64,000 nucleotides of DNA, taken from assembly GCF_024502345.1 (NCBI RefSeq), contig NZ_JALDNN010000001.1; one strand, 5' to 3'. Positions 13,477-32,062 of this stretch are shown piece by piece (the stretch's first letter is position 1; every line of letters starts with the position of its first letter). Below the pieces are notes generated by a model. The model was given only the letters and a program-made list of their open reading frames with translations, was not told where the DNA came from and made no database searches. This stretch comes from Escherichia coli (lineage in GTDB: Bacteria; Pseudomonadota; Gammaproteobacteria; Enterobacterales; Enterobacteriaceae). A program made the position numbers and the translations under genes.

Positions 13477-13558
13477 AACCCTCTCCTTAGCTTATACAGA
13501 TATCATTGAGTGACCGGTGTTGAGAAATCCGGTGGTTTAGGGGGATAGAGCAACAATC

Positions 13559-13574
13559 GCACCACTCTTGCCAG
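13559..13574 (-). promoter_or_regulatory. candidate sigma-54 (-24/-12) promoter upstream of ygfK
   Basis: minus-strand sequence CTGGCAAGAGTGGTGC: GG and GC dinucleotides at the canonical 10-nt spacing; about 85 bp upstream of the ygfK start. Confidence 0.3.
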
Positions 13575-13797
13575 GTTTGGCGGGAAATATAAAAAAATGT
13601 GAGGCGGCTCGAAACTTAAGGGCTTTTTGTGAATGAACTCACAGGTGCTAAATGAGAATTAAAATCACTCCTGAAAATTATTATTGCCAGCCCATTTATC
13701 ACTTTTTCTCTTTTCTCAAAATCAGTGATTCCTTATCATTATGATAAAGAGTGCCGGAAGGATTAAATATTTGAACGCAATCGTTTAACTACGTTTT

Positions 13798-14376
13798 CTA
13801 AATTTCTGTATACCTTTTCTTCGCTGTAATAAAGTCGTCCGGAGTATCAATATCTAAAATTATTTCTGCATTTTCTATTTCGACGGAATAATGATCTCCC
13901 ATAAGGAGTGCCTGACGCATATTGGTGACATTGGGTCGCTGGATTGCCTGCATCAGGCATGGTTTTGACACTAAAATCGGATGGCCGGGGATGCCATTAT
14001 GGAGTGGCAGTATTGCGCCATCATTTCGTAACGACCAGATTTTTCTAAAAATATCGATGGTGAGGGTTGGCATGTCACCGTGGGTGAGAAAACAATGTTC
14101 TGTTTGCACCGCGGGTACTGCGGCCTTTACTGATGTTAGTAAACCCTGCGCATAATCTGGGTTGTGGATAATAGTGATATTGCTCTGGTTCGCATAACGT
14201 TCGTGCAGTTCATTACCACGATAGCCGGTGACTAAAATAATTCGGCTACAAAACTGCAACGCATTTTTGATACTTGTATCAAGAATTGTTCCCTGTTGCC
14301 AGGGTAACATCATTTTCCATTGCCCCATTCTTGATGATAATCCGGCAGCGGTAATTATACAGTCGATGGCTGACAT
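13798..14376 (-). CDS. mocA: molybdenum cofactor cytidylyltransferase
   Basis: 192 aa ORF; MobA-like nucleotidyltransferase N-terminus (IITAAGLSSRMG). Confidence 0.8.
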   Translation of the reverse strand: MSAIDCIITAAGLSSRMGQWKMMLPWQQGTILDTSIKNALQFCSRIILVTGYRGNELHERYANQSNITIIHNPDYAQGLLTSVKAAVPAVQTEHCFLTHGDMPTLTIDIFRKIWSLRNDGAILPLHNGIPGHPILVSKPCLMQAIQRPNVTNMRQALLMGDHYSVEIENAEIILDIDTPDDFITAKKRYTEI

Positions 14377-14478
14377 AGTGGTTCCATTATTTATAGGGGC
14401 TAATAACGCCTGATAATTGCGTTACTTCCTGATGCATTAAGTTGGGGATAATTTATCCCAGAGAGGTCATAAAGACTC

Positions 14479-15249
14479 GTGAAAAGTATAGTTGACCCAT
14501 CGGCATTAGTCATTGATTTAGGCGCGCAGAAACGTCCCACTGTGATTTCTGTTGTTGGTGCTGGGGGGAAAACCAGCTTGCTTTTTTGGCTGGCAGAACT
14601 GCTCCAGGCTAGCGGCAGGCGTGTGTTAATCACGACGACAACACATATGTTTATGCCAACGTCTCACTGGCCCGTGGTTTTCTGTCGTGATCCCGCCATG
14701 CTTCCTCATGCGTCTCTTACATCCCCCATTTCATTTTGTTTTCACAGCTGGAAAGCGAACCAGGGAAAAGTGCAGGGATTTACGCCAGAAGCGATTGATG
14801 CACTGGTGCAACGACCAGAGTGTGACGTAATTCTCATTGAAGCAGATGGCTCGCGTGGAATGCCGTTAAAAGCGCCTGATGAGCACGAACCTTGCATACC
14901 CAAAAGCAGTTGCTGCGTGATTGCTGTGATGGGAGGACATACTTTGGGCGCGAAAGTGAGCACAGAAAATGTCCATCGCTGGTCGCAGTTTGCTGATATT
15001 ACCGTGTTAACACCTGATGCAACCTTGCAACTGAGCGATCTCGTTGCGCTGGTTCGCCACCCTCAGGGGGCGTTTAAAAACGTACCGCAAGGTTGTCGGC
15101 GAGTCTGGTTCATTAACCGTTTTTCTCAATGTGAGAATGCGATTGCACAAAGCGAGCTCCTTCAACCGCTGCAACAACACGACGTAGAGGCAATCTGGCT
15201 GGGCGATATACAAGAACATCCTGCAATCGCGCGCAGATTTGTGAATTAG
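14479..15249 (+). CDS. yqeC: uncharacterized protein with P-loop-like N-terminus, possible selenium/molybdenum cofactor accessory factor
   Basis: 256 aa ORF with Walker-A-like motif (VVGAGGKTSL); divergent from mocA. Confidence 0.7.
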   Translation: MKSIVDPSALVIDLGAQKRPTVISVVGAGGKTSLLFWLAELLQASGRRVLITTTTHMFMPTSHWPVVFCRDPAMLPHASLTSPISFCFHSWKANQGKVQGFTPEAIDALVQRPECDVILIEADGSRGMPLKAPDEHEPCIPKSSCCVIAVMGGHTLGAKVSTENVHRWSQFADITVLTPDATLQLSDLVALVRHPQGAFKNVPQGCRRVWFINRFSQCENAIAQSELLQPLQQHDVEAIWLGDIQEHPAIARRFVN

Positions 15250-15296
15250 CGGCCCGGGTATTCCGGGTTACTGAAAGGATATCCATTGAGGTTGGT

Positions 15297-16922
15297 ATGA
15301 ATATTTTCACAGAGGCTGCAAAACTCGAAGAGCAAAATTGTCCGTTTGCGATGGCGCAAATTGTTGATAGCCGAGGCTCGACTCCCCGCCATTCTGCACA
15401 AATGTTAGTGCGCGCCGATGGTTCTATCGTCGGTACAATTGGTGGCGGAATGGTTGAGCGGAAGGTGATTGAAGAGTCACTTCAGGCATTGCAGGAACGT
15501 AAGCCGCGATTATTCCATGGACGTATGGCTCGTAACGGTGCGGATGCTGTCGGGTCAGATTGTGGAGGTGCAATGTCAGTATTTATCAGCGTCCATGGTA
15601 TGCGTCCACGTCTGGTGTTGATTGGCGCGGGGCATGTCAACCGGGCGATAGCCCAGAGTGCGGCGCTATTAGGATTTGATATTGCCGTTGCCGATATTTA
15701 TCGCGAAAGCCTCAATCCTGAACTATTCCCTCCATCAACCACGCTTCTCCATGCTGAGTCGTTTGGTGCAGCAGTGGAAGCACTGGATATTCGCCCTGAT
15801 AATTTTGTCCTGATTGCCACGAATAATCAGGATCGTGAAGCCCTCGACAAACTCATTGAACAGCCCATTGCATGGTTGGGGTTGCTGGCAAGTCGCCGCA
15901 AGGTTCAGCTTTTCCTGCGTCAATTGCGTGAGAAAGGCGTGGCTGAAGAACATATTGCCCGTTTACATGCGCCCGTTGGTTACAACATAGGTGCGGAAAC
16001 GCCGCAGGAGATCGCCATCAGCGTGCTGGCAGAAATATTACAGGTGAAAAATAACGCGCCGGGTGGGCTGATGATGAAACCTTCTCATCCTTCCGGACAC
16101 CAGCTGGTGGTGATTCGCGGTGCGGGAGATATCGCCAGTGGTGTGGCGCTACGTCTGTATCATGCGGGTTTTAAAGTGATCATGCTGGAAGTGGAAAAAC
16201 CGACAGTGATTCGTTGTACCGTGGCGTTTGCCCAGGCCGTGTTCGATGGCGAAATGACGGTCGAAGGCGTCACTGCTCGCCTGGCAACCAGCTCTGCGGA
16301 AGCGATGAAACTTACCGAACGCGGATTCATCCCTGTGATGGTAGATCCCGCCTGTTCATTGCTTGATGAACTGAAACCGCTTTGCGTGGTGGACGCTATT
16401 CTGGCGAAACAGAATTTGGGAACGCGGGCAGATATGGCACCAGTAACAATCGCGCTTGGGCCGGGCTTTACTGCAGGGAAGGATTGTCATGCGGTAATTG
16501 AAACAAATCGCGGGCACTGGCTCGGTCAGGTGATTTACTCTGGTTGTGCGCAGGAGAATACCGGTGTTCCTGGCAATATTATGGGGCATACCACCCGACG
16601 GGTGATCCGTGCTCCTGCTGCAGGCATTATGCGATCCAACGTGAAATTAGGCGATCTGGTGAAAGAGGGCGATGTGATTGCCTGGATTGGTGAGCATGAA
16701 ATTAAAGCACCGTTGACGGGGATGGTGCGTGGCTTGTTGAACGACGGCCTGGCAGTGGTCGGTGGTTTTAAAATTGGTGATATCGATCCTCGTGGTGAAA
16801 CGGCTGATTTCACCAGTGTTTCTGATAAAGCCCGGGCGATTGGCGGCGGCGTACTTGAGGCGTTAATGATGTTGATGCATCAGGGCGTGAAAGCGACAAA
16901 AGAAGTGCTGGAAGTGGCTTAA
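15297..16922 (+). CDS. yqeB: XdhC/CoxI-family molybdenum hydroxylase accessory protein
   Basis: 541 aa ORF; XdhC-CoxI family-like N-terminus and Rossmann-like region. Confidence 0.8.
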   Translation: MNIFTEAAKLEEQNCPFAMAQIVDSRGSTPRHSAQMLVRADGSIVGTIGGGMVERKVIEESLQALQERKPRLFHGRMARNGADAVGSDCGGAMSVFISVHGMRPRLVLIGAGHVNRAIAQSAALLGFDIAVADIYRESLNPELFPPSTTLLHAESFGAAVEALDIRPDNFVLIATNNQDREALDKLIEQPIAWLGLLASRRKVQLFLRQLREKGVAEEHIARLHAPVGYNIGAETPQEIAISVLAEILQVKNNAPGGLMMKPSHPSGHQLVVIRGAGDIASGVALRLYHAGFKVIMLEVEKPTVIRCTVAFAQAVFDGEMTVEGVTARLATSSAEAMKLTERGFIPVMVDPACSLLDELKPLCVVDAILAKQNLGTRADMAPVTIALGPGFTAGKDCHAVIETNRGHWLGQVIYSGCAQENTGVPGNIMGHTTRRVIRAPAAGIMRSNVKLGDLVKEGDVIAWIGEHEIKAPLTGMVRGLLNDGLAVVGGFKIGDIDPRGETADFTSVSDKARAIGGGVLEALMMLMHQGVKATKEVLEVA

Positions 16923-16962
16923 ATGAAAATGGCCGGATGGTATTACCCCCCCGGCCTTAAAA

Positions 16963-17895
16963 TTACTGACAAATCACCGTTCCGGTTTTGCCTTCAATCC
17001 CTTCTTTCGCTTTGCTCAATACGGTAATCAGTGCTTCACGACCTGCGCGAGAGCGAGCAAACGAGGCGGCAGCTTCCACTTTAGGCAGCATAGAACCTTT
17101 CGCAAAATGACCTTCTTCGATAAAGCGTTCAGCATCACTTAATGACAGGCGATCGAGCCACTGTTCATTCTCTTTACCGAAGTTAATGGCCACTTTTTCT
17201 ACCGCAGTCAGAATGATCAGCATATCGGCATCAATCATTTCTGCTAAACGGGCGCTGGCCCAGTCTTTATCGATAACCGCGCTGGCACCACGCAGATGGT
17301 TACCTTCACGAATAACAGGAATACCACCACCGCCAACGGTGATCACCACCTGGCCTGCATCTACCAGAGCTTTAACCGTTTCTTTTTCAATAATATCAAC
17401 CGGTTTTGGCGAGGCAACAACACGGCGATAGCCGCGACCAGCATCTTCTTTCAGAGTGTAACCCTGTTTTGTCAGTTGCTCTGCTTCTTGCTCGGTAAAG
17501 AACGAACCGATCGGCTTGGTCGGGTTGAGGAATGCCGGATCGTTAGCGTCGACTTCGACCTGAGTAACCAGCGTTGCTACCGGTTTATTAATGCCCCGAG
17601 AAAGCAGTTCTTCTCTTAAGGCGTTTTGTAGATCGTAACCAATATAACCCTGGCTTAAGGCAACGCAGACAGACATCGGCAGCATTGGCGAGTGCGCTTC
17701 AGTTTTTGCAGCAGCTTCAAAGGCCTGGTTAATCATGCCCACCTGCGGCCCGTTACCATGAGTGACGATAACTTCATGTCCTTGGGCAATTAAATCAACA
17801 ATTGCCTGAGAAGTAATTTTTACCGCTTTCATTTGTCCGGCCAGGTCATCGCCCAGCGCATTCCCGCCCAGGGCGAGAACAATTTTCTTACTCAT
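16963..17895 (-). CDS. yqeA: carbamate kinase-like protein
   Basis: 310 aa ORF with the amino-acid kinase fold N-terminus (KIVLALGGNALG). Confidence 0.8.
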   Translation of the reverse strand: MSKKIVLALGGNALGDDLAGQMKAVKITSQAIVDLIAQGHEVIVTHGNGPQVGMINQAFEAAAKTEAHSPMLPMSVCVALSQGYIGYDLQNALREELLSRGINKPVATLVTQVEVDANDPAFLNPTKPIGSFFTEQEAEQLTKQGYTLKEDAGRGYRRVVASPKPVDIIEKETVKALVDAGQVVITVGGGGIPVIREGNHLRGASAVIDKDWASARLAEMIDADMLIILTAVEKVAINFGKENEQWLDRLSLSDAERFIEEGHFAKGSMLPKVEAAASFARSRAGREALITVLSKAKEGIEGKTGTVICQ

Positions 17896-17942
17896 TTTTC
17901 CTCACTCATCATTCTTGATTGTGTATAGATCCCTGACAGTGG

Positions 17943-19328
17943 TTAGAGCACGGGAGGGACAAACGGTTTGCGTCGCAGGAAACGACCTCGCCCGGCTTTG
18001 CCTGTAAAGGTGCCGTCACAGAAAATCGTTTCACCACGGGATAAGGTTCTGACAATCGCGCCCTGACAGGTAAAACCCTCCCATGGCGAGTAGTCGGCGT
18101 TGTCGTGGAGATGGCGATGCTGAATTTGTTGGCTCTGACGTGGGTCGATAATCACCACGTCGCCATCGGAACCGGGCGCTAATAATCCTTTTTGCGGCCA
18201 CAGGCCAAACAGCCTGGCGGGCATTGCGCTGGTTAATTCAACAAAGCGTTCCGGTGTTATACGTCCCGTCATCACGCCACTGGAAAACAGTAACTGCATG
18301 CGGTTTTCCACACCGGGTAAGCCATTTGGGCAGCGACTGAAATCGCCTTTAGAAATTTGCAGGCGTTGAGCCATCGAGAAGGTGCAGTGATCGGTCGCCA
18401 CCACGTCAATCGCACCATCGCTGATGCCACACCACAGTTTGTCCTGCTCGCGTACGTTACGCAGCGGTGGGCTAAGAATGAACTTCATGCCATCTTCTGT
18501 ATCGTAACTGCGTTCGTCCAACAGGAGATATTGTGGGCAGGTTTCAACCCAGACTGGCTGGTGATTCGCACGGGCAAGACGCAGATAATCCAGACCTAAG
18601 CCGTTAGACAGGTGCACGATATAGAGCGGGGCGTTACCGGCAATTTGTGCCAGGTTAATCATGCGGGCGATGGCTTCCGCTTCGCATTCCAGAGGGCGAC
18701 TCAAGGCATGATAGCGCGGCGCGGTTAACCCTGCGGCGATAAATTCCGCCCGCTTGCTGGCGATAGCCGCATCATTTTCCGGGTGCACGGTGGTCAGCGC
18801 GCCGGATTCATGCAGACGGCGTAATGCCTGCAAAACCTCGTCATCGTTGAGTTTGTATTGATAGGTTAAATAGAGTTTAAAACTGCTCAGTCCTTCCTCG
18901 ACCATCATCGGGATTTCGTCGAGGATTGCGTGATTAATGTGCTGGATCACACCGTGAAAGCTGTAATCGATGACCGCTTTATGGGCGGCATAACCACGAT
19001 AAACCTCCAGTTGATGGCGTAACCGACAGCCGTTTGGGCCAAATCCCATATGGTCAATAATGGTTGTTGTACCGCCACACGCAGCTGCGCGGGTACCGGT
19101 AAAAAAATCATCACAACTGCGCGCGATGCCGACATCAATATTGAAATGCGTATGGACATCCACGCCGCCAGGGAAAACGTAACAGCCAGTGGCATCAATT
19201 TCTTCATACGGGAGCTGCGGCGAAATATTGTTGCCCAACTGGCGAACAATCCCGCTTTCAATCAGCAAATCCTGTTTGGCTTGTCCATCTGCGTTAACGA
19301 CAGTGCCGTTTTTGATCAATACGCGCAT
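17943..19328 (-). CDS. hyuA: D-phenylhydantoinase / dihydropyrimidinase-like cyclic amidohydrolase
   Basis: ORF 17943..19340 trimmed to MRVLIKNGTVVNADG...; 461 aa; metal-binding HxH (VDVHTHF). Confidence 0.85.
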   Translation of the reverse strand: MRVLIKNGTVVNADGQAKQDLLIESGIVRQLGNNISPQLPYEEIDATGCYVFPGGVDVHTHFNIDVGIARSCDDFFTGTRAAACGGTTTIIDHMGFGPNGCRLRHQLEVYRGYAAHKAVIDYSFHGVIQHINHAILDEIPMMVEEGLSSFKLYLTYQYKLNDDEVLQALRRLHESGALTTVHPENDAAIASKRAEFIAAGLTAPRYHALSRPLECEAEAIARMINLAQIAGNAPLYIVHLSNGLGLDYLRLARANHQPVWVETCPQYLLLDERSYDTEDGMKFILSPPLRNVREQDKLWCGISDGAIDVVATDHCTFSMAQRLQISKGDFSRCPNGLPGVENRMQLLFSSGVMTGRITPERFVELTSAMPARLFGLWPQKGLLAPGSDGDVVIIDPRQSQQIQHRHLHDNADYSPWEGFTCQGAIVRTLSRGETIFCDGTFTGKAGRGRFLRRKPFVPPVL

Positions 19329-19380
19329 AGCAAACTCCAAAAACCCTCCGGCGAACCGGAGGGGAATAAGTGAAGAGTAA

Positions 19381-20592
19381 TTACTCTGTTGCCAGCCAGC
19401 TTAACGGGATTGCAGCGTACATCGCGGCACAGGTCACCAGGTGAGATTTCCAGGTTTTTTCGTTAGGTGCATGCGCTTCAGGTTCTTTACCCGGGCCAAA
19501 GCCGATCACCGGAATGCCGTGACGGCCCATGATAGATACGCCGTTAGTTGAGAAGGTCCACTTATCAACAACCGGCGCTTTGCCAAACAGCCCTTCGTAG
19601 GCATTCACCAGTGCTTTAACGGTGAAGTGATCTTCTTCCACTTTCCAGGTCGGGAAGTAGCATTCGGTTGGGTAAACCAGGCCAGTCCAGGACGGACGGT
19701 CGTAGTTGTACATAGAAACAACCGCGTTAGCTTTCTGTACTGCAGGCAGGGCGCGGATTTCGTCCAGCGCGCCTTCCCAGGTTTCGCCCCAGGTCAGACG
19801 GCGGTCAATAGAGACGGCGCAGCTATCTGCTACAGCGCAACGGCTTGGGGATGTGAAGAAGATTTCAGAAACGGTGAGGGTGCCTTTGCCGAGGAATTCG
19901 TCATAACCCAGACGTTGGGAGAGTTCTTGTAATTCGCCAAGAATCGGACCCATTTTGAAAATGGCGTTGTCACCGCGTTCTGGCGCAGAACCGTGGCAGC
20001 TAACACCCTGAACATCAATACGAATTTCCATACGACCGCGCTGACCACGGTATACCTGGCAGTCGGTTGGTTCGGTACTGACCACAAATTCCGGGCGAAT
20101 GCCGGATTGTTCAATAATGTACTGCCAGCACAGACCGTCGCAGTCTTCTTCCTGCACAGTACCGGTAACCAGCAGGGTATATTCATCTTCCAGACCGAGG
20201 TCTTTAATGATTTTACCGGCATAAACCATAGATGCCATGCCGCCTTCCTGGTCGGAAGTACCGCGACCACCGATCAGCTCATCAGTTTCCATGCCTTCGT
20301 ACGGATCGAAGTCCCAGTTTTTGATGTTGCCAATGCCGACGGTATCGATATGAGCGTCCATTGCCACCAGACGCGGGCCGTGGCCGATATAACCGAGAAC
20401 GTTACCCATCGGGTCGATTTCAACTTTATCGAAGCCGACTTTTTCCATCTCTTCTTTAATACGATGTACTACGCGTTTCTCGTCGCAGCTTTCACTGGGA
20501 ATAGCAACCATGTCGCGCAGGAAGCGAGTCATATCCGCCTGGTAATCTTTTGCTTTTTCAAGAATCAGTTTGAATGGAATATTCTTAGCCAT
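19381..20592 (-). CDS. ygeY: M20-family peptidase / amidohydrolase
   Basis: 403 aa ORF; ArgE/DapE-like metallopeptidase motifs. Confidence 0.8.
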
Positions 20593-20649
20593 TATTTTTC
20601 TCCAGATTTTTTACTCCCCGTTTTGCAGGGAGCAGTTCCAATAGGGTGA

Positions 20650-21846
20650 TTAAGGTGCTACAGCGTGTTTGCCTTCCCAGACAACTTCGCGGTAGTGCTT
20701 CACGTCGGTGTCGCCTTCAGTGCTGATAACCAGCACTACGGCATCTTTGTTCAGCGCCAGTTTTTCCATCAGGCTTTGACGTTGCGGGTGATAATGAACC
20801 GCCGCGAGAACGCCCAAACCGACAGCGCCGGATTCACCGGAGATGATGCGCGGGTCGTTGCCGTACGGATTACCCAGCACGCGCATACCTAATGCGGCAA
20901 CGCTGTCCTGGCAGGAGATGAATTGGGTGGCGCAGTTACGTAGGATTTCCCAGCCCAGCGGGTTAGGTTCGCCACAGGCCAGGCCCGCCATGATGGTGGC
21001 CATATCACCGCCAACGTTGACGATGTCGCCTTTGACGCCGGAGCGATAAATACAGTCAGCTTTGTCAGGTTCAACAATAATGCTATGCAGATTTTGCGGG
21101 CTGTAGACGTCGACCAGATAACCCAGCACACCACCGGCCATTGCACCGACACCAGCTTGCAGCAGAACGTGCGTCGGGGTTACGCCCATTTCACGCATTT
21201 GCTCGACGGCTTCATCTGCCAGGGTTGCGTAGCCTTGCATGATCCAGGATGGGATTTTGGTGTAACCTTCCCATGCCGTGTCCTGTACTACTTCCCAGCC
21301 GTGCTGCTGCGCGTGTTGCATGGTCAGGCGAACGGTATCGTCATAGTTCATATCCGTGACGATGCACTCGGCACCGAGGTTCAGAATGGCGTCAACGCGT
21401 TCCTGAGCAGAACCTTTCGGCATGTAAATCACCGCATTCTGTCCGAGTTGCTGCGCTGCCCACGCCACACCGCGCCCGTGGTTGCCGTCGGTGGTGGTGG
21501 CGAAAGTCATTTTTTCGCCGATGGCATTTTTCAGGTGCTCAAATGACAGCGTTTCGATATCAAGATGATATTTTTCACACAATAATTGAGCGATAGCGTA
21601 CGCACCGCCGAGCATTTTGAAGGCGTTCAGACCGAATCGTTTTGATTCGTCTTTGACAAGAATTTTCTTCACACCAAAAAGGTTTGCGAGATCGTCCAGC
21701 GCACAAAGCGGTGTTGGGCGATAACCAGCTATTTTCTGGTGGAACTGGCGCGCCAGTTTGGCCTGGCTTTGCGAAAAGAGCGGTGATGTTTCGCCGTTGA
21801 AAAATTTGTTATCGGCGATATCAATCTTCAATGAGAAAACGGACAT
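20650..21846 (-). CDS. dpaL: 2,3-diaminopropionate ammonia-lyase (PLP-dependent)
   Basis: 398 aa ORF; PLP fold-type II features; synonym ygeX. Confidence 0.85.
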   Translation of the reverse strand: MSVFSLKIDIADNKFFNGETSPLFSQSQAKLARQFHQKIAGYRPTPLCALDDLANLFGVKKILVKDESKRFGLNAFKMLGGAYAIAQLLCEKYHLDIETLSFEHLKNAIGEKMTFATTTDGNHGRGVAWAAQQLGQNAVIYMPKGSAQERVDAILNLGAECIVTDMNYDDTVRLTMQHAQQHGWEVVQDTAWEGYTKIPSWIMQGYATLADEAVEQMREMGVTPTHVLLQAGVGAMAGGVLGYLVDVYSPQNLHSIIVEPDKADCIYRSGVKGDIVNVGGDMATIMAGLACGEPNPLGWEILRNCATQFISCQDSVAALGMRVLGNPYGNDPRIISGESGAVGLGVLAAVHYHPQRQSLMEKLALNKDAVVLVISTEGDTDVKHYREVVWEGKHAVAP

Positions 21847-21903
21847 ATCCTATCCTTTTGGCCTCTGGAAATAGAGGGCCGACCAGCTGATCGGCCCGAG
21901 GGG

Positions 21904-23094
21904 TTATTTCACGCGTTCTTGCGCTTCTTTCAGCAGTTGCTCGAGCAGTGCACCTGGTTTGGCGTATTTACGGGACAGGATCATCGCGGCGATGATATAA
22001 GGCTTCCAGCTGGCTTCTTTGTAGGTAGCGATACGGTATTTTTCGAATACGCCTTCAGTCACTTCACCTTCTTTGCAGGATACGCCGCTGATATCAGCTG
22101 GCAGGCAGTGCATGTACAGGGCTTCGCCATCACGGGTCAGTTCCATCATCTCTTCAGTACAATGCCAGTCTTTGTGTTGCGCGTTCTGTGCCAGACACTG
22201 TTTTTCCAGTGCTTTTAAGCCTTCGTGGTCGTTCGCACGCAGCAATTCAGTACGCTCTTCCATCACTTTGTAAGGTGCCCATGACTTCGGATAAACGATG
22301 TCTGCATCTTTGAACGCTTCTTCCATGCTGGTGACCTGACGGAAGCTACCGCCAGATGCTTTAGCATTGTTTTTCGCCACTTCAACCACATCCGGGATCA
22401 GGTCGTAGCCTTCCGGATGGGCCAGGGTGACATCCATACCGAAGCGAGTCATCAGACCGATGATGCCTTGTGGTACAGAGAGCGGTTTGCCATAGCTTGG
22501 AGAGTAGGCCCAGGTCATGGCGATTTTTTTACCTTTCAGGTTTTCCAGTGAACCAAAGTGTTCACGTAACCACGCGAGGTCAGCCATTGACTGAGTCGGG
22601 TGGTCAATATCGCATTGCAGGTTCACTAAAGCCGGACGCTGTGGCAGTACACCCTGCTTGTAACCGTCATCAAGTGCAGCGCCAACTTCACGCATATAGG
22701 CGTTGCCTGCGCCCAGATACATATCGTCGCGAATACCAATAGCGTCGGCGCAGAAGGAGATCATATTGGCGGTTTCACGCACGGTTTCGCCGTGAGCGAT
22801 TTGTGATTTGCCTTCGTCGAGATCTTGTTGTGCAAGGCCGAGCAGGTTAAGCGCGGAAGCATAAGAGAAGCGGGTACGGGTGGAGTTGTCGCGGAATACG
22901 GAAATACCTAATCCACTATTAAAGACTTTGGTTGAGATGTTTTCAGCACGCAGTGCTTTTAATGCTGCGGCAACGTCCAGTACTTGTTTCAGTTCATCTG
23001 GCGTCTGTTCCCACGTTAACAAAAAATCTTTCTCGTGAAGGTGAGAGGTCAGCGAATTGATATCCTTAATCAGCTCATTAACAGTTTTCATCAT
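21904..23094 (-). CDS. ygeW: transcarbamylase-family protein (ornithine/aspartate carbamoyltransferase-like)
   Basis: 396 aa ORF; carbamoyl-phosphate-binding STRTR motif. Confidence 0.8.
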   Translation of the reverse strand: MMKTVNELIKDINSLTSHLHEKDFLLTWEQTPDELKQVLDVAAALKALRAENISTKVFNSGLGISVFRDNSTRTRFSYASALNLLGLAQQDLDEGKSQIAHGETVRETANMISFCADAIGIRDDMYLGAGNAYMREVGAALDDGYKQGVLPQRPALVNLQCDIDHPTQSMADLAWLREHFGSLENLKGKKIAMTWAYSPSYGKPLSVPQGIIGLMTRFGMDVTLAHPEGYDLIPDVVEVAKNNAKASGGSFRQVTSMEEAFKDADIVYPKSWAPYKVMEERTELLRANDHEGLKALEKQCLAQNAQHKDWHCTEEMMELTRDGEALYMHCLPADISGVSCKEGEVTEGVFEKYRIATYKEASWKPYIIAAMILSRKYAKPGALLEQLLKEAQERVK

Positions 23095-23184
23095 AAAGTC
23101 CCGGTAGTGGAATGACAGGCAAAGTGGTTTATTTCACTGTGACTTGCCAAAGTGATTGGTGTTTTCACAGCTATACCTGGGACT

Positions 23185-23200
23185 AACAATAAGTGTGCCA
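23185..23200 (-). promoter_or_regulatory. weak candidate sigma-54 promoter upstream of ygeW
   Basis: minus-strand sequence TGGCACACTTATTGTT: perfect -24 TGGCAC, but the -12 element is TTGT rather than TTGC; about 100 bp upstream of the ygeW start. Confidence 0.2.
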
Positions 23201-23569
23201 GAATTATCCGCGCGGCTGCAAAAGACTAATTTGACGGATAATGTGTGGGGTTGATCACAAATTGATGCCAGCTTCTGGTTGTTTGTAAAATACGAAAACG
23301 TTTGGCTTTTTTTATCGCGTTATTTATTTGCTGCTAAGTATCAGAAATAAGATAAAGGGGCAGGCTATCTCTCTTCAGTTTGATAAACTCACCGCCGTAA
23401 TTCTCATATTGATATAGAAATGTGATATCTCTTCCATAATTTCATTAGAAAATGATAAAAATCTTATGTTTTTATCAAAGCCAATTTCGCCTGAGTTAAT
23501 ATCATCATGATCTGTGAACCATCAACGTCTTCAATGATCGACTTTTAAGTAAGTCTGGAAGGTAAAGCT

Positions 23570-25348
23570 ATGGAGCTTGCTACTACGCAGTCAGTATTGA
23601 TGCAAATTCAACCGACAATTCAGCGTTTTGCCAGAATGCTTGCCAGCGTTTTGCAGCTTGAGGTTGAGATCGTTGATGAAAACTTGTGTCGCGTCGCCGG
23701 AACGGGCGCGTATGGGAAGTTTCTTGGTCGCCAGTTGAGCGGCAACTCACGCCTGCTCCGCCACGTCCTGGAAACGAAAACTGAAAAAGTTGTGACACAG
23801 TCTCGCTTCGATCCCCTTTGCGAAGGTTGCGATAGTAAAGAAAATTGCCGCGAAAAAGCATTTCTGGGTACGCCTGTCATTTTACAGGATCGTTGTGTTG
23901 GGGTGATAAGTTTGATTGCCGTTACCCACGAGCAACAAGAGCATATCAGTGATAATTTACGCGAATTTTCTGATTATGTTCGCCATATATCCACCATTTT
24001 TGTTTCGAAACTTCTGGAGGATCAGGGGCCAGGAGATAACATCAGTAAAATATTCGCGACCATGATCGATAATATGGATCAGGGCGTATTAGTTGTTGAT
24101 GATGAAAGTCGGGTTCAGTTTGTTAATCAGACTGCCTTAAAAACACTTGGTGTTGTACAAAATAATATTATTGGGAAACCTATCCGTTTCAGACCATTAA
24201 CATTTGAGAGTAATTTTACTCATGGACATATGCAGCATATTGTTTCGTGGGACGATAAAAGTGAATTAATCATTGGTCAATTGCATAACATTCAGGGCCG
24301 ACAATTATTTTTAATGGCATTTCACCAATCGCATACCAGTTTTTCTGTAGCAAATGCACCTGATGAACCACATATTGAACAATTGGTTGGCGAGTGCCGT
24401 GTTATGCGGCAATTAAAACGACTCATTAGCCGTATTGCACCCAGCCCATCCAGCGTTATGGTGGTTGGTGAAAGTGGCACGGGTAAAGAAGTCGTCGCCC
24501 GAGCAATCCATAAGTTGAGCGGAAGACGGAATAAACCCTTTATTGCTATCAACTGTGCCGCGATTCCGGAGCAGCTTCTGGAAAGCGAACTGTTCGGTTA
24601 TGTTAAAGGCGCATTTACTGGCGCTTCTGCCAACGGTAAAACAGGGTTGATTCAGGCGGCGAATACGGGCACGCTGTTTCTCGATGAAATAGGTGATATG
24701 CCATTAATGTTGCAGGCTAAATTACTGCGCGCTATTGAGGCGCGTGAAATTCTGCCGATTGGTGCCAGTAGCCCAATACAAGTCGACATTCGCATCATTT
24801 CTGCAACTAATCAGAATTTGGCCCAGTTCATTGCCGAAGGTAAATTCCGCGAAGATCTCTTCTACCGACTTAATGTTATCCCGATAACTCTGCCACCGCT
24901 GCGTGAACGTCAGGAAGATATTGAACTATTGGTGCATTACTTTTTACATCTGCATACCCGTCGTCTGGGATCGGTTTATCCTGGCATTGCTCCCGATGTC
25001 GTCGAAATATTGCGTAAGCATCGTTGGCCCGGAAACCTGCGCGAGTTAAGCAATTTGATGGAATATCTGGTTAACGTAGTTCCTTCAGGTGAAGTTATCG
25101 ACAGCACGCTATTGCCGCCAAATCTGCTGAATAATGGCACAACGGAGCAAAGTGATGTAACAGAGGTCAGTGAGGCGCACCTGTCACTCGATGATGCGGG
25201 CGGCACGGCGCTGGAGGAGATGGAAAAGCAAATGATCCGCGAGGCGCTTTCACGTCATAACAGCAAGAAGCAAGTTGCTGATGAACTGGGCATCGGCATT
25301 GCTACGCTCTATCGCAAGATTAAGAAATATGAGTTGTTAAACACATAA
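23570..25348 (+). CDS. ygeV: sigma-54-dependent transcriptional activator (bacterial enhancer-binding protein)
   Basis: 592 aa ORF; AAA+ sigma-54 interaction domain with Walker A (GESGTGKE) and GAFTGA motif; C-terminal Fis-type HTH. Confidence 0.85.
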   Translation: MELATTQSVLMQIQPTIQRFARMLASVLQLEVEIVDENLCRVAGTGAYGKFLGRQLSGNSRLLRHVLETKTEKVVTQSRFDPLCEGCDSKENCREKAFLGTPVILQDRCVGVISLIAVTHEQQEHISDNLREFSDYVRHISTIFVSKLLEDQGPGDNISKIFATMIDNMDQGVLVVDDESRVQFVNQTALKTLGVVQNNIIGKPIRFRPLTFESNFTHGHMQHIVSWDDKSELIIGQLHNIQGRQLFLMAFHQSHTSFSVANAPDEPHIEQLVGECRVMRQLKRLISRIAPSPSSVMVVGESGTGKEVVARAIHKLSGRRNKPFIAINCAAIPEQLLESELFGYVKGAFTGASANGKTGLIQAANTGTLFLDEIGDMPLMLQAKLLRAIEAREILPIGASSPIQVDIRIISATNQNLAQFIAEGKFREDLFYRLNVIPITLPPLRERQEDIELLVHYFLHLHTRRLGSVYPGIAPDVVEILRKHRWPGNLRELSNLMEYLVNVVPSGEVIDSTLLPPNLLNNGTTEQSDVTEVSEAHLSLDDAGGTALEEMEKQMIREALSRHNSKKQVADELGIGIATLYRKIKKYELLNT

Positions 25349-25357
25349 CCTCAGTGA

Positions 25358-25381
25358 ATCCGGCCTGAATTCAGGCCGGAT
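25358..25381. terminator. bidirectional stem-loop between convergent ygeV and xdhC
   Basis: perfect inverted repeat ATCCGGCCTGAATTCAGGCCGGAT in the 39-bp gap between the two stop codons. Confidence 0.5.
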
Positions 25382-25387
25382 ATCCTT

Positions 25388-25867
25388 TTACTTCGTTTTC
25401 TCGCAATCCAGAACTGTATTTACAATCATCTGATACCCCGTGCAGCGACAAAGATTTCCCGCCAGTCCGCGACGAATTTCCGTAATGGTTAATGGCTTCT
25501 CGCGTGGTTTCGCCAGCATTGCCGTGGTAGCCATAATCAGGCCAGGCGTACAAAACCCGCACTGCACTGCGCCGGATTTCGCATAAGCCTGCTGAACATG
25601 AGAAAGTTTTCCGCCTTTCGCTTCACCTTCCAGCGTGCGGATCTCTTTTCCTTCAGCCCAGGCGGCAAGGTATAAGCAACTGTCTATTGCTGTGCCGTCG
25701 ACCAACACCGTACAGGCACCACATTCACCCACGCAGCACCCTTGTTTGACACTTAGCAGTCCTTGTTCGCGGAGTAATTCCGAGAGCGGCGTGCCTGGTG
25801 CGGCGTGAAGCTGAAAAGGCATCCCGTTAATGGTGCATTCGATGGTAATTGTTTCGCTGTGATTCAT
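25388..25867 (-). CDS. xdhC: xanthine dehydrogenase 2Fe-2S subunit
   Basis: 159 aa ORF; ferredoxin-like cysteine clusters ([16 protein letters not shown]). Confidence 0.85.
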
Positions 25868-26742
25868 TGCAATTTTCCCCCCGCCGCGGCGACGGCTTCG
25901 CTAATCACTTTTTTGGTCATCGTCTGGATGAGATGCAGACGAAACTCTTTACTGGCCCGCCATGAAGAACGCGGGGCGACATCTTGCAGGACAGATTCGC
26001 TGATAGCTTCCAGCGTTTGCAGGTTTAATGGCGCATTTTGTGCAGTCTGTTCGGCATGTTGGCAGCGAATCGGCGTTGGCGCGGCAACACCAAATGCCAG
26101 GCGTAATTCGCTGAAATTGTCGTTATCCAGTCGGCAATGTGCGGCGCAGCCAATCGTTGAAATATCCATTGCGTCGCGCATGGCATATTTAAAATGCGCG
26201 CTGCCCGCGTGTTCTTTCGGCTGTGGCGGAAAATGAAAGGCGACGAGGATTTCGTCATGCTCAAGAGACACTTTGCCCGGCCCGGTGTGAAAGCCATTAA
26301 TCGGGACGAAACGAACACCGCGCGGGGAGTGGATCTCCAGTTTCGCGTCATAAATTAGCGTTGGCGTGGCAGAATCTGCGCTGGTGGCACCGTTGCAAAT
26401 ATTTCCACCGTAGGTAGCGACGTTACGGATCTGCGGTCCAGCAATGGACGTGGCCGCAGCACATAACGCCGGGAGATGACGTTGAGTTATAGGATCTTCT
26501 ATTAGCTGGGTAAATGTCGTTGCAGAGCCGATACGTAGCGAGCCATCTTCCGCCAGCGTAATTCCCCGCAGCTCCGCCAGATTATGAATATCAACAATAT
26601 GGCGATAACGGTCATTGTGATGGTGGAGCTGAATCAGTACGTCAGTGCCACCGGCGAGCAGTTTGGCCTGCGGGTTGTCAGCCAGCAGGTTGATGGCATC
26701 GGCAAGGGTTGCTGCGCGATGGTAAGAAGCAAAATCAAACAT
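25864..26742 (-). CDS. xdhB: xanthine dehydrogenase FAD-binding subunit
   Basis: 292 aa ORF; stop overlaps the xdhC start. Confidence 0.85.
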
Positions 26743-26752
26743 GATGTTATCC

Positions 26753-29011
26753 TCAAATCAATCCTGCCAGATGGAACTCTTCATATAACCGTTTTGGCGT
26801 CAGCGGCAGTGTATTGATTGCAACACCGGTAGCCATCTTCACCGCGTTACGAATAGCAGCGGCAACAGGAATTATTGGTGGCTCACCCAGTGACTTATGT
26901 CCGTATGCGGATTGCGGCTCATTGATTTCGACGAACGCGCTTTCCAGTTGTGGCAGATCCGGCATGGTCGGCATTTTGTAATCCAGCAGATTGGGGTTAC
27001 GGACCACGCCGCTTTTAGCATCGATGATCATCTCTTCAAATAGCGCCCAGCCAATGCCCATTCCCATTCCGCCGTGTACCTGACCTTCTGCCAGCAGTGG
27101 ATTAAGAATATGCCCTGAATCATGAACGTTGAGGATGCGGTTGATGGTGACTTTGCACAGCGCAATATCGACCGTCAGATCAACAAAGGTACAGCCAAAC
27201 GCCGGTGGGTTAGTGGTGGTTTTGATGGAGCTTTCAGCAGAGAGCTGCCCGCCGCGTTCAGGGTGGTAGAAAGCGTCCATCGCCAAATCTTTTAACGACA
27301 TTAACGGCTCTTCCGGTCGTTCAACCAGCACGATATGGCCTTTTATCAGGGTCAGATTCATCGCTGACTGATGTAGCATGACTGCGGCGTGAGCGATGAT
27401 TTTCTCTTTTAATAATAGTGCCGCACTGCGCAGCGCAGGCGCGGCAACATAGCTCTGGCGTGAGGCAAATGCGCCGGGATCGAACGGCGTAACGTCGGTA
27501 TCTTGAGTTGAAATAACGCGAACGTCGCTGACCGGAACCCCCACGGTTTCTGCCACCATTTGCGAGAAGACGGTGTCGGCACCCTGACCGATTTCCGTCG
27601 CGCCGCTTTGCACGTTGATGGTTCCATCCTGATTCATCAGAAGGCGCGCGCCTGCTATTTCTACGCCGACAGGCCAGGTGTTAGAGGTGTAGCTAAAACA
27701 GGCGACGCCAACGCCGCGGCGCAAATTGCCTTGCTGGTTCTGGCATTCTGCACGGCGTTTTTCCCATTCAAAGATTTTCCGGCCTTTTTCAAGACACTCC
27801 GGCAACCCTGCGCTGTAAATACGTTTGCCCGTGAGCGGATTAGCATCTCCTTCGCGGGCGGCGTTGCGTAAACGAATTTCAACAGGATCAATACCTAACG
27901 CTGTCGCGGCGTCATCAAGCATAGACTCAACGGCAAATACGACTTGTGGCGCGCCATAACCACGCATCGCACCAGCCGAGGGGAGGTTGGTATAGCAGGT
28001 CTTTGAACTGTAAGCGTAGGCACAACGAGGATAAAGGTAAGCGACTTTATTCCCCCCCGCAGAAGCGATGGAGTGCCCGTGAGATGCATAAGCGCCGGTG
28101 TTAGACAGAACATCCAGACTATAACCTTTCAATGTTCCGTCGCGGTTCACGCCCATTTGCCCGTCAATGGTAAAAGCGTGGCGGGTACGGGTTGCGAGGA
28201 AACACTCTTCACGGCTAAGGGAAACTTTCACCGGAATGCCGCCAAGCTTGCTGGTCAGGAATGCCGCCATTGGCTCTTCCAGTACATCCTGTTTATTACC
28301 AAAACCGCCACCGACAAATGGTTTGATGACTCGTACGCATGACCAGGGAATATCCAGCGCCTGACCAACCACGCGGCGAACAATGTGCGGGATCTGGGTG
28401 CTGGAAACGATGGTAATTCGCGAGTCATCCTCCATCCACGCCAGCGATGTTACGCTTTCCATGTGACAATGTTGAATAACGGGGGTCTGATAGTGCCCCT
28501 GTACCTGGTAGTCGGCGGCATCGATTGTTTGTTGGACATTACCCGTCGACATCGTGCTTTGTTTCAGTAAATTGCCACCGTTATGGATTGGTGCAGCGTC
28601 TTCTGCCAGCGCCGCTTCTGGCGTGGTGATAACGGGTAATTCTTGCCACTCAATGCTGACCAATTGCGCCGCTTTTTCTGCCGTGAGTTCATCGCGGGCC
28701 ACGACGATGGCAACGGCGTCACCATGATGACGAACATGGCGAGTTAGCAGTGCGCGATCGGCGGTATCGCGCTTGTTTTCGTCAAGTGTCCAGGCATGCC
28801 CAGCTGTAGCGAATGGAATATCAGGCACATCTTCCCAGGTAAAAATCGCCAGTACGCCCGGCAAACTTCTGGCTTGTTCATCATTAATACTTACGGCATA
28901 ACCATGTGCGATAGGGCTACGTACATATTTCGCATAACACATGCCCGCCATAACATAATCGTCAGTATATCGTGCCCGCCCGGTGACCTTAGCAATGGCA
29001 TCGACGCGCAT
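26753..29011 (-). CDS. xdhA: xanthine dehydrogenase molybdopterin-binding subunit
   Basis: ORF 26753..29050 trimmed to MRVDAIAKVTGRARY...; 752 aa; molybdopterin hydroxylase motifs (GGGFGNK). Confidence 0.85.
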   Translation of the reverse strand: MRVDAIAKVTGRARYTDDYVMAGMCYAKYVRSPIAHGYAVSINDEQARSLPGVLAIFTWEDVPDIPFATAGHAWTLDENKRDTADRALLTRHVRHHGDAVAIVVARDELTAEKAAQLVSIEWQELPVITTPEAALAEDAAPIHNGGNLLKQSTMSTGNVQQTIDAADYQVQGHYQTPVIQHCHMESVTSLAWMEDDSRITIVSSTQIPHIVRRVVGQALDIPWSCVRVIKPFVGGGFGNKQDVLEEPMAAFLTSKLGGIPVKVSLSREECFLATRTRHAFTIDGQMGVNRDGTLKGYSLDVLSNTGAYASHGHSIASAGGNKVAYLYPRCAYAYSSKTCYTNLPSAGAMRGYGAPQVVFAVESMLDDAATALGIDPVEIRLRNAAREGDANPLTGKRIYSAGLPECLEKGRKIFEWEKRRAECQNQQGNLRRGVGVACFSYTSNTWPVGVEIAGARLLMNQDGTINVQSGATEIGQGADTVFSQMVAETVGVPVSDVRVISTQDTDVTPFDPGAFASRQSYVAAPALRSAALLLKEKIIAHAAVMLHQSAMNLTLIKGHIVLVERPEEPLMSLKDLAMDAFYHPERGGQLSAESSIKTTTNPPAFGCTFVDLTVDIALCKVTINRILNVHDSGHILNPLLAEGQVHGGMGMGIGWALFEEMIIDAKSGVVRNPNLLDYKMPTMPDLPQLESAFVEINEPQSAYGHKSLGEPPIIPVAAAIRNAVKMATGVAINTLPLTPKRLYEEFHLAGLI

Positions 29012-29105
29012 GCATGATTCACCCGTAGCGGTTGCTTCCCGCGCTTCCATAGAAATCCCCTCGATTTGAACATTTGGTTCTTATGGCAAAGATTTAGTCT
29101 AAGCA

Positions 29106-29122
29106 GGCAAGATTTACGCCAG
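29106..29122 (-). promoter_or_regulatory. candidate sigma-54 (-24/-12) promoter upstream of xdhABC
   Basis: minus-strand sequence CTGGCGTAAATCTTGCC: matches YTGGCACG-N4-TTGCW at the GG and TTGC core positions; about 95 bp upstream of the xdhA start. Confidence 0.35.
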
Positions 29123-29464
29123 AAACGACGATAAGCGTTAGGGGAGGTAGGAAGTGTGATGACGTTAAAAAAACACAGATATGATACGAAACAGGACTCT
29201 GAATAGGGGCAGTGATACGTATCAATATGAGTGGCGATAAAATCAATGTGATAAATTGGGATTATTACGCATCAGGATGGGAAATAGGGTAAAAAGTCAG
29301 GAACTTCGATACCTCTACAGCGAATATTTTGCTGATGATACTTCCCTTTGCCAAATGAAATTAACCTCTTTCTCTATTACCACGTTTTTCCAGAAGCAAG
29401 AGATTGGGTATCAAGAGGCTGGCTGCTATGATAAGGCGTCTTGTTTTTTAAGCGAGGAAAGATT

Positions 29465-30298: not shown

Positions 30299-30372
30299 GC
30301 GGGCGTAGTTCAATGGTAGAACGAGAGCTTCCCAAGCTCTATACGAGGGTTCGATTCCCTTCGCCCGCTCCA
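30299..30372 (+). tRNA. glyU: tRNA-Gly (anticodon CCC)
   Basis: 74-nt sequence GCGGGCGTAGTTCAATGGTAGAACGAGAGCTTCCCAAGCTCTATACGAGGGTTCGATTCCCTTCGCCCGCTCCA with cloverleaf and CCC anticodon. Confidence 0.95.
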
Positions 30373-30563
30373 ATTTATCTTCACCTGATCAATCTGCCAT
30401 TTTTGCTGTATCTGATTTTCTATATTATCTTAATTCAATCGCTTCAGGCTTTTCGCAATCGCTGTAACACTTCCCCATTTTTTTGTAAATAAAAAGCGTT
30501 TACGCAATGCAATCCTTTTGTAACAACCCAGGTAAAACACCTTATTTTCAAGTTGTTAAATAA

Positions 30564-31139
30564 GTGGTTATCTACGCTTTTAACAAACGATTGATGGAAT
30601 ATTTTATGAAAGGGAAATCTGCATTAACTCTTCTGCTCGCTGGTATATTTTCGTGCGGCACATGCCAGGCGACAGGGGCAGAAGTGACGAGTGAATCTGT
30701 ATTTAACATTCTTAATTCCACGGGGCAGCAACAGATAAAAGTTATTTATCGTTAAATCCAGATAAGTACCCTAATTATCGTCTTCTGATTCACTCAGCCA
30801 AATTAAAAAATGAAATAAAGAGCCACTATACCAAAGACGAAATTCAAGGGTTGTTAACATTAACAGAAAACACACGAAAGTTAACGTTGACGGAGAAACC
30901 CTGGGGAACATTTATTCTTGCTTCTACTTTCGAAGATGACAAAACAGCGGCAGAAACCCACTATGATGGTGTCTGGCTGAGGGATAGTTTATGGGGCTAT
31001 ATGGCATTAGTATCAGATCAGGGAAATAGTGTAGCCGCAAAAAAGGTTCTGCTCACCCTGTGGGATTATATGTCTACGCCCGACCAGATTAAGCGGATGC
31101 AGGACGTCATTAGCAACCCCAAACGACTGGATGGAGTTC
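30564..31139 (+). pseudogene. frameshifted, 3'-truncated island gene remnant (signal-peptide protein, possibly ygeP/ygeQ-like), cut by the IS3 end
   Basis: two ORFs in different frames (30564..30755 with a signal peptide; 30851..31156) in AT-rich DNA next to glyU; the second ORF runs into the IS3 terminal repeat at 31140. Confidence 0.4.
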
Positions 31140-31169
31140 TGATCCTACCCACGTAATATGGACACAGGC

Positions 31170-32036: not shown

Positions 32037-32062
32037 TTCAGGCGCTTCGCGAAGTATGTCGC

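Follow-up and report, generated by a model that had tools for sequence, protein, structure and literature searches.

The ygeV-centred gene cluster of Escherichia coli: a 2,8-dioxopurine pathway locus with conserved sigma-54 promoters and a shared palindrome predicted to bind YgeV

A stretch of 64,000 nucleotides of Escherichia coli DNA (hereafter the window; contig NZ_JALDNN010000001.1 of RefSeq assembly GCF_024502345.1) carries, between positions 13798 and 29011, a group of enzyme genes around ygeV, which encodes a sigma-54 activator. The locus raises two questions: what its enzymes do, and how their genes are controlled. The region is the E. coli cluster for the anaerobic (reductive) degradation of uric acid and purines, i.e., the 2,8-dioxopurine pathway; both the cluster and its chemistry were already known, and were explained biochemically in 2025. 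A fuller explanation, in which this pathway cluster is expressed from conserved sigma-54 operons that are controlled by YgeV through a shared palindrome, was considered very probable.

Gene calls were carried over from the RefSeq annotation of the best-matching E. coli genome and each gene was re-translated in the window; enzyme and accessory products were then scored against curated NCBIfam family cut-offs. Twelve intact genes were recognised within the region, nine on the minus strand and three on the plus strand:

13798-14376, minus strand: mocA, molybdenum cofactor cytidylyltransferase (TIGR03310, 215 bits against a cut-off of 186)
14479-15249, plus strand: yqeC, selenium cofactor trait marker (TIGR03172, 237 bits)
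15297-16922, plus strand: yqeB, XdhC-family factor for selenium-dependent molybdenum cofactor maturation (TIGR03309, 417 bits)
16963-17895, minus strand: yqeA (arcC), carbamate kinase (TIGR00746, 386 bits against a cut-off of 358)
17943-19328, minus strand: hyuA, hydantoinase (TIGR02033, 675 bits)
19381-20592, minus strand: ygeY, M20 hydrolase (TIGR03526, 722 bits)
20650-21846, minus strand: dpaL (ygeX), diaminopropionate ammonia-lyase (TIGR03528, 650 bits against a cut-off of 532)
21904-23091, minus strand: ygeW, knotted carbamoyltransferase (PRK07200, 825 bits)
23570-25348, plus strand: ygeV (isrR), sigma-54 enhancer-binding protein with GAF, PAS, AAA+ and HTH_8 domains
25388-25867, minus strand: xdhC, xanthine dehydrogenase subunit
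25864-26742, minus strand: xdhB, xanthine dehydrogenase subunit
26753-29050, minus strand: xdhA, xanthine dehydrogenase subunit

Four further genes of the pathway adjoin this block on the left (5350-13476, minus strand), and therefore lie outside the coordinates with which a first-pass annotation, made from the sequence alone, had grouped them:

5350-8220, minus strand: xdhD, molybdenum/Fe-S hydroxylase subunit (TIGR03313, 2119 bits against a cut-off of 1102)
8217-8996, minus strand: ygfM, flavin adenine dinucleotide (FAD) subunit and partner of XdhD (TIGR03312, 488 bits, above cut-off)
9047-10375, minus strand: ssnA, amidohydrolase (TIGR03314 at 731 bits, and PRK07203, above cut-off)
10378-13476, minus strand: ygfK, Fe-S flavoprotein (TIGR03315, 1779 bits)

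All enzyme and accessory proteins scanned exceeded their curated cut-offs, including the products of xdhA-xdhB-xdhC (25388-29050, minus strand; PRK09970, PRK09971 and PRK09908); YgeV was the exception. Every gene named by the first-pass annotation was present and intact. Its description of a co-oriented cluster did not hold, since the order of the block is mocA / yqeC-yqeB / yqeA-hyuA-ygeY-dpaL-ygeW / ygeV / xdhCBA, and the minus-strand genes form three separate strings, between which stand the plus-strand genes yqeC-yqeB and ygeV. The window is chromosomal E. coli DNA, and the region belongs to the core of the species: of 5426 complete E. coli genomes, 5328 matched 13798-29011 at 95% identity or more, the best matches reaching 99.7%. 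Left of xdhD follow xanQ, guaD, ghxQ, ygfS and the end of ygfT; xdhD, xanQ and ghxQ are intact in the window strain and frameshifted in the best-matching reference. Position 29011 corresponds to the xdhA start of K-12, with another ATG upstream at 29050. Between 29011 and 29050 the reading frame was conserved, variation was codon-like, and the ATG at 29050 was found in all genera aligned, which favours the 765-residue form of XdhA annotated by RefSeq over the 752-residue K-12 form, as judged by this alignment.

The pathway itself has been worked out twice. Li et al. 2025 (PMC12507026) assigned the route with purified enzymes of E. coli and C. difficile, and Liu et al. 2025 (bioRxiv 10.1101/2025.04.24.650524) described the same uric acid route with all enzymes assigned; a commentary has also appeared (PMC12990295). 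Stepwise reconstitution with E. coli proteins was achieved by both groups independently, and matching intermediates were detected in mutants of E. coli and C. sporogenes (PMC12507026; bioRxiv 10.1101/2025.04.24.650524). The pathway is fed by XdhABC, which oxidises hypoxanthine and xanthine and thereby supplies uric acid. XdhD-YgfM is the uric acid 6-dehydroxylase (2,8-dioxopurine dehydrogenase), which yields 2,8-dioxopurine ('yanthine') by taking off the 6-oxo group, and YgfM co-purifies with XdhD (PMC12507026). The ring is reduced by YgfK, an NAD(P)H:2,8-dioxopurine oxidoreductase (PMC12507026; bioRxiv 10.1101/2025.04.24.650524), after which SsnA opens the pyrimidine ring of the reduced 2,8-dioxopurine, and HyuA, by a further ring opening, converts ureidomethyl-hydantoin or 5-ureido-dihydrouracil to 2,3-diureidopropionate (PMC12507026). 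YgeW phosphorolyses one ureido group of this compound to yield carbamoyl phosphate (PMC12507026; bioRxiv 10.1101/2025.04.24.650524), from which ATP is gained by YqeA together with YgeW (bioRxiv 10.1101/2025.04.24.650524). YgeY cleaves the last ureido group to leave 2,3-diaminopropionate, and DpaL (YgeX) converts this to pyruvate and ammonia (PMC12507026). MocA, YqeB and YqeC act in maturing the hydroxylases' molybdenum (and selenium) cofactor; in C. sporogenes, the molybdenum hydroxylases require SelD (bioRxiv 10.1101/2025.04.24.650524).

Both gene pairs by which a 2,8-dioxopurine cluster of the E. coli type is recognised were found in the window: xdhD with ygfM, whose products passed the TIGR03313 and TIGR03312 cut-offs, and ygfK with ssnA, which are adjoining genes. 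The lower pathway was represented in full, with all five of HyuA, YgeW, YqeA, YgeY and DpaL above curated cut-offs, and the trait markers of selenium-dependent hydroxylases, yqeB and yqeC (TIGR03309 and TIGR03172, above cut-off), stood adjacent to a molybdenum hydroxylase; selD lies outside the window. Uric acid conversion to pyruvate is known for the K-12 proteins; those of the window are near-identical and would be expected to perform it likewise. The pathway, itself already published, bears on gut urate clearance, on gout and on engineered uricolytic probiotics; the residual value of the cluster lies in its regulation. The 2025 authors described the regulation of the uric acid genes as poorly understood, and exchanged the ygeV-ygeW spacer for a synthetic promoter (PMC12507026).

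To examine regulation, the YgeV sensor region served as the query that retrieved 39 loci, which represent at least 15 enterobacterial genera, and promoter conservation was judged in spacer alignments of 30, 11 and 9 taxa. A consensus scan for sigma-54 promoters across the window returned 59 matches against 45 expected, which alone is uninformative; three candidates were singled out because they were conserved across genera, and not by the scan:

13549-13564, minus strand: candidate sigma-54 promoter of ygfK-ssnA-ygfM-xdhD, TGGTGCGATTGTTGCT
23185-23200, minus strand: predicted sigma-54 promoter of ygeW, TGGCACACTTATTGTT, with GT and not GC as its -12 element
29106-29121, minus strand: predicted sigma-54 promoter of xdhA, TGGCGTAAATCTTGCC

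The pattern was GG-N10-GC at xdhA and ygfK and GG-N10-GT at ygeW, conserved across genera in each case. At ygeW, TGGCA and TTATTGTTA were invariant in 30 taxa, giving the form TGGCAYnnTTATTGTTA with TTGT at the -12 element; the TTGTT form recurred in two distant loci (L044 and L045). Binding of sigma-54 RNA polymerase has been located in the ygeV-ygeW spacer by genomic systematic evolution of ligands by exponential enrichment (gSELEX; PMC8743547). The xdhA promoter took the form TGGCGTAAnTCTTGCC; in 10 informative other taxa, from Escherichia, Citrobacter, K. indica, Atlantibacter, Yokenella and Trabulsiella, TTCTGGCGTA and TTGCCT were identical and the spacer varied at two to three positions. 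Upstream of ygfK the TGGTGYGAWTGTTGCT form was conserved in eight other genera or species, with a related form in L044. At least three operons are therefore predicted from the alignments, each behind an invariant or near-invariant -24/-12 promoter: ygeW-dpaL-ygeY(-hyuA-yqeA), xdhABC and ygfK-ssnA-ygfM-xdhD. A scan for sigma-70 promoters produced 18 sites where 19.4 were expected, i.e., no signal.

Each of the three sigma-54 promoters lies 130-250 bp downstream of a palindrome, TATCA-N3-TGATA:

13734-13746: palindrome upstream of ygfK, TATCATTATGATA, zero mismatches, approximately 200 bp upstream of the ygfK start site
23373-23427: palindrome block upstream of ygeW, with a central site at 23402-23414 (TCTCATATTGATA) and others at 23373-23385 and 23415-23427
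23500-23512: palindrome upstream of ygeV, TATCATCATGATC, one mismatch, 58-70 bp upstream of the ygeV ATG
29220-29253: two palindromes upstream of xdhA, at 29241-29253 and 29220-29232, centres 21 bp apart, approximately 130-150 bp upstream of the start site

With up to one mismatch, the palindrome occurred seven times in the window against 1.38 expected, and four of the seven fell within the 1.2 kb of the three regulatory spacers. When 308 palindromes were enumerated without bias, TATCA-N3-TGATA ranked top (Poisson p of about 1e-5) and was the sole palindrome present in all three spacers. Over 28 loci, it was at least 30 times denser in regulatory spacers than elsewhere, and the enrichment rose further when matches upstream of ygfK at locus edges were counted as regulatory. 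The central site upstream of ygeW was found in 28 of 28 loci, mostly at 208-213 bp from the GG of the -24 element (26 measurable loci), within a nearly invariant block, ATCACATTT..ATATCAATATGAkAAT..TTTATCA. The ygfK palindrome, which in its extended form reads CTTTATCATAATGATAAGG on the minus strand (13749-13731), was conserved in about 23 of the 28 loci. Upstream of xdhA the pattern TATCAyAATGA ... TCATAWTGATA was conserved, as was a GATGATAyTAaC block at the palindrome preceding ygeV; given its position, 23500-23512 is a possible autoregulatory site.

The same element was met outside the window as well. The uacT-ygfT spacer, left of the window (L042, 7881-8315), contained TCTCATATTGATA, identical to the site in the ygeW spacer; the spacer also holds an element facing uacT, TGGCACTCCACGAGCAT (TGGCAC-N5-GAGCA). 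Where the sensor was only 31-41% identical to YgeV, one Firmicute included, the palindrome was found before ygeW, ygfK, xdh or ygeY. It also matched sites predicted independently in Clostridia for the regulator DioR; for example, the C. botulinum site reads ATTTATCATAATGATAAGG, almost the same as CTTTATCATAATGATAAGG at E. coli ygfK. Separately, a perfect TATCAAGATGATA palindrome was observed within the dpaL coding sequence (21558-21570, codons YHLDIE), which recurs at the same position in Escherichia and Citrobacter and has one mismatch in Raoultella, Klebsiella and Pluralibacter; it may simply reflect conservation of the coding sequence, or may be an internal site for YgeV.

Two promoters are accompanied by a second type of site, resembling that of the cAMP receptor protein (CRP):

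13628-13643: CRP-type site at ygfK, a perfect TGTGA-N6-TCACA, between the palindrome and the ygfK promoter
23244-23259: CRP-like site at ygeW, TGTGATCAACCCCACA, one mismatch, approximately 77 bp upstream of the ygeW start site

Equivalent sites at ygfK were perfect in Serratia silvae and in Enterobacteriaceae 89, while at ygeW the GTGA...CA portion was conserved, and here also the site was located between palindrome and promoter. These sites agree with glucose repression, as reported, and with the 'native Crp-binding site' mentioned for the ygeV-ygeW spacer (PMC12507026). Co-regulation of the cluster, the alternative to which was independent transcription of its genes, was borne out: the purine genes form one YgeV iModulon (PMC10602906; gene list in PMC12132413), the sigma-54 promoters are conserved, and a common palindrome lies upstream. 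In the mechanism proposed, YgeV, a GAF-PAS enhancer-binding protein and putative orthologue of DioR, would bind the palindromes and activate sigma-54 RNA polymerase through looping of the DNA, and CRP would contribute catabolite control; the signal to YgeV would most likely be some metabolite of the pathway that its GAF domain senses. The predicted control elements would account for the low and glucose-sensitive native expression, and with promoters, operator, CRP sites and the cysteine-bearing GAF sensor described below, the control circuit becomes directly testable.

YgeV has the architecture that such a mechanism would need. Its AAA+ domain matched PF00158 at 2e-70 and its helix-turn-helix is of the Fis type (PF02954, HTH_8), preceded by an N-terminus of GAF and PAS domains; the GAFTGA motif, Walker A (GESGTGKE) and Walker B (LFLDEIGDM) are intact. 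Many sigma-54 activator models matched YgeV, none of them above its family cut-off. An exhaustive search with the sensor, through a library of 1.84 billion proteins, recovered 864 representative clusters at 21-41% identity. Within the GAF domain, the family carries a Cys-x2-Cys-x5-Cys element (residues 84-93, window positions 23819-23848) in the loop before strand 4; C84, C87 and C93 were each kept in 92 of 93 aligned family members, and D36, T45, G46, P102 and G111 were likewise conserved in that alignment. No solved structure or described function of this CxxCx5C loop was found. The loop, which would cover the GAF pocket, could bind a metal or Fe-S cluster, or form a redox-sensitive disulfide.

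The genomic company of distant sensors bears on the signal. In six of six informative distant contexts, dpaL and/or a YgeY-family M20 gene was present: two contained a whole uric acid cluster, and in the other four (22-31% sensor identity) the sensor gene stood beside a true diaminopropionate ammonia-lyase and/or a YgeY-family hydrolase. The predicted DioR regulon of C. tetani consists of dpaL alone (PMC6615313). Since dpaL and ygeY are the sole universal partners of the sensor family, and one regulon comprises dpaL only, the effector could be a late intermediate and not urate. A tentative extension, which we regard as possible though rather unlikely, is that YgeV and DioR sense a late product (2,3-diaminopropionate or its carbamoyl precursor), with the cysteine loop acting as a second gate linked to anaerobiosis. 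If true, the TATCA-N3-TGATA operator and the cysteine triad would offer direct handles on YgeV.

Among the other explanations, that which survives best casts YgeV as an orphan response regulator (IsrR) that mainly senses indole and regulates virulence, and whose purine neighbours are incidental. It draws on work in enterohaemorrhagic E. coli (EHEC), where few genes are induced by indole as strongly as ygeV and where a tnaA isrR double deletion reduces locus of enterocyte effacement (LEE) expression (PMC9426417). However, no PF00072 match, and hence no receiver domain, was detected in YgeV, so that the label 'orphan response regulator' does not fit, and direct binding to the LEE is listed as an open question by the authors of that work (PMC9426417). 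The genomic evidence also runs the other way: in at least 15 genera, every locus with an upstream flank has ygeV and ygeW in divergent orientation, although the LEE is missing from most of the organisms concerned, the palindrome and the sigma-54 promoters precede purine operons, and the YgeV iModulon is made up of purine genes. As a principal role, virulence control was therefore judged improbable; the two roles are mutually compatible, and the virulence effect could be metabolic or indirect.

The proposal that the cluster is an undefined route for some purine- or pyrimidine-like heterocycle, as the first-pass annotation had it, is encouraged by vague database names such as 'putative selenate reductase subunit YgfK', 'D-phenylhydantoinase' and 'YgeY family selenium metabolism-linked hydrolase', but is contradicted by the reconstitutions and mutant intermediates cited above, and was given very little credence. 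Its general direction was right, in that a single purine-heterocycle route with a carbamoyltransferase and a carbamate kinase does stand under a sigma-54 activator. The word 'undefined' has become outdated now that every enzyme has been assigned by Li et al. 2025 and Liu et al. 2025, and the supposed end in carbamate and carbamoyl phosphate gives way to pyruvate and ammonia, carbamoyl phosphate being the side product of one step. That several members lack a role remains fair for the signal of YgeV and for the chemistry of YqeB and YqeC, but not for the enzymes. Least credible of all is the older annotation as a selenium-metabolism or selenate-reduction system: the TIGRFAM names Se_ygfK, Se_ssnA and selenium_YgeY stem from co-occurrence with the selenium cofactor trait (PMC2276186), whereas selenate is neither needed by YgfK nor stimulates it, the substrate of YgfK is 2,8-dioxopurine, and the selenium link runs through the maturation of molybdenum hydroxylases by SelD, YqeB and YqeC (bioRxiv 10.1101/2025.04.24.650524).

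Several observations weigh against the explanation favoured here, i.e., the 2,8-dioxopurine cluster under YgeV, palindrome and sigma-54 control. The two 2025 papers conflict over which ureido group is removed by YgeW, 2-ureido group cleavage to give albizziin being set against 3-amino-2-ureidopropanoate as the product (PMC12507026; bioRxiv 10.1101/2025.04.24.650524; PMC12990295). The -12 element of the ygeW promoter is GT instead of GC. No canonical sigma-54 promoter facing ygfT was found in the uacT-ygfT spacer, although ygfT reportedly depends on ygeV, its expression being lowered in a ygeV mutant as cited in PMC10602906. Binding of YgeV at the palindromes is a prediction, and the motif was first spotted by eye in two regions; the tests with the uacT-ygfT spacer, the distant loci, the clostridial sites and the 308 enumerated palindromes are independent of that discovery. 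The genes yqeA, mocA, yqeB and yqeC are outside the iModulon and without a palindrome, and may be regulated separately. Finally, the link of YgeV to indole and the LEE (PMC9426417) is unexplained by a purine model.

Within the operons, the spacing of genes was at odds with a claim that many junctions show stop/start overlaps consistent with translational coupling. Only one of seven same-strand junctions in the region overlapped (xdhB/xdhC, ATGA); the xdhA/xdhB gap was 10 nt and the remaining five junctions were 47-57 nt apart. Outside those coordinates, ygfM and xdhD overlap (ATGA) and ygfK and ssnA are 2 nt apart. Three of the wider spacers, as well as that between the convergent genes ygeV and xdhC, contain hairpins:

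19344-19363, minus strand: ygeY/hyuA hairpin, 8 bp stem followed by U5, z = -2.6, kept in the genera compared
20612-20634, minus strand: dpaL/ygeY hairpin, 9 bp stem, found in most genera
21876-21897, minus strand: ygeW/dpaL hairpin, -25.5 kcal/mol, z = -2.35, stem covarying over 14 genera
25358-25381: ygeV/xdhC hairpin between convergent genes, palindromic, 10 bp stem, z = -5.5

The ygeW/dpaL, dpaL/ygeY and ygeY/hyuA hairpins are rich in G+C, and a hairpin was kept in 14 genera while the sequence of the stem was altered. This persistence of hairpins with differing stems argues against translational coupling in the ygeW-yqeA string, and the covariation points to a function at the RNA level (partial termination or stabilisation of the transcript); conserved intercistronic hairpins would then tune the relative expression of genes within the string. 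By its structure, the ygeY/hyuA hairpin looks like an internal terminator or attenuator, and that at 25358-25381 is probably a bidirectional terminator. A further G+C-rich hairpin was noted in the ssnA/ygfM spacer (9014-9036). An Rfam scan of the cluster returned no riboswitch or other known RNA.

Comparison of the retrieved loci indicated which parts of the cluster travel together. In all of the approximately 35 loci with an upstream flank, from at least 15 genera, ygeV was divergent from ygeW-dpaL-ygeY-hyuA-yqeA; two truncated loci that lacked upstream DNA stood outside this count. By contrast with this constant pairing, the only loci with xdhCBA after ygeV were those of Escherichia, Citrobacter, Atlantibacter, K. 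indica, Yokenella, Trabulsiella and one Pluralibacter, and yqeA is directly followed by a short XdhC-like gene and ygfK in the Klebsiella oxytoca group and some other taxa. Eight loci (L026, L028-L030, L032, L035, L037 and L038, representing the Klebsiella oxytoca group, Raoultella terrigena, Serratia silvae and others) had neither yqeC nor mocA at this position; the short XdhC-like gene replaced yqeB, and xdhABC was not beside ygeV. Such layouts imply that the accessory and xanthine dehydrogenase modules are separable from a core of ygeV, ygeW-yqeA and ygfK.

Other features of the window lie beyond the cluster. Beside tRNA-Gly(CCC) (glyU, 30299-30372), the ETT2 type III secretion island that adjoins it in many strains is absent. 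In its place, 30373-34300 holds a ygeQ fragment, an IS3-family transposase (31170-32036, minus strand), an IS30-family transposase (32125-33276, plus strand) and an EcpR-like regulator (33602-34231, minus strand); of this 4.8 kb stretch, at most 68% of the length was matched by any complete genome. Tandem small RNA genes, OmrA and OmrB, lie between galR and aas (42032-42316; Rfam RF00079, 86 and 97 bits) and are unrelated to the cluster.

Among known systems, the ygeV/xdh/ygf locus of E. coli K-12 has the same gene set and order, and with 99.7% DNA identity to annotated E. coli genomes nothing substantive differs. The nearest regulatory parallel is the DioR regulon predicted in Clostridia (PMC6615313), which shares the targets dpaL, ygeW-ygfK-ssnA-ygeY, yqeBC and xdh, the upstream motif TTATCA-N3-TGATAA and the -24/-12 promoters. 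A GAF-type N-terminus like that of YgeV was seen in the Firmicute and metagenome relatives compared; the DioR proteins CBO2889 and CD3186 would be its orthologues. The E. coli cluster differs from the DioR regulon in the TTGT of its ygeW -12 element, in the CRP-type sites interposed at two promoters, and in its accessory genes mocA, yqeB and yqeC, which are without a site. NorR, NifA, FhlA and Nlh2 resemble YgeV in that an N-terminal GAF domain controls an AAA+ sigma-54 activator with a helix-turn-helix of the Fis type, but the YgeV family has a near-invariant CxxCx5C loop of its own and an extra PAS domain. With respect to chemistry, the arginine deiminase pathway likewise employs a phosphorolytic carbamoyltransferase and then a carbamate kinase to generate ATP at substrate level; in the cluster, however, the substrate is 2,3-diureidopropionate and not citrulline, and YgeW belongs to the 'knotted' subfamily. 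The reductive pyrimidine (Pyd) pathway (PydA, PydB, PydC) shares the sequence of reductive dearomatisation, cyclic amidohydrolase and ureido cleavage, paralleled here by YgfK, then SsnA and HyuA, then YgeY or YgeW; unlike Pyd, the cluster acts on a purine after 6-dehydroxylation, with two rings and two ureido groups to dismantle and a molybdenum hydroxylase working in reverse.

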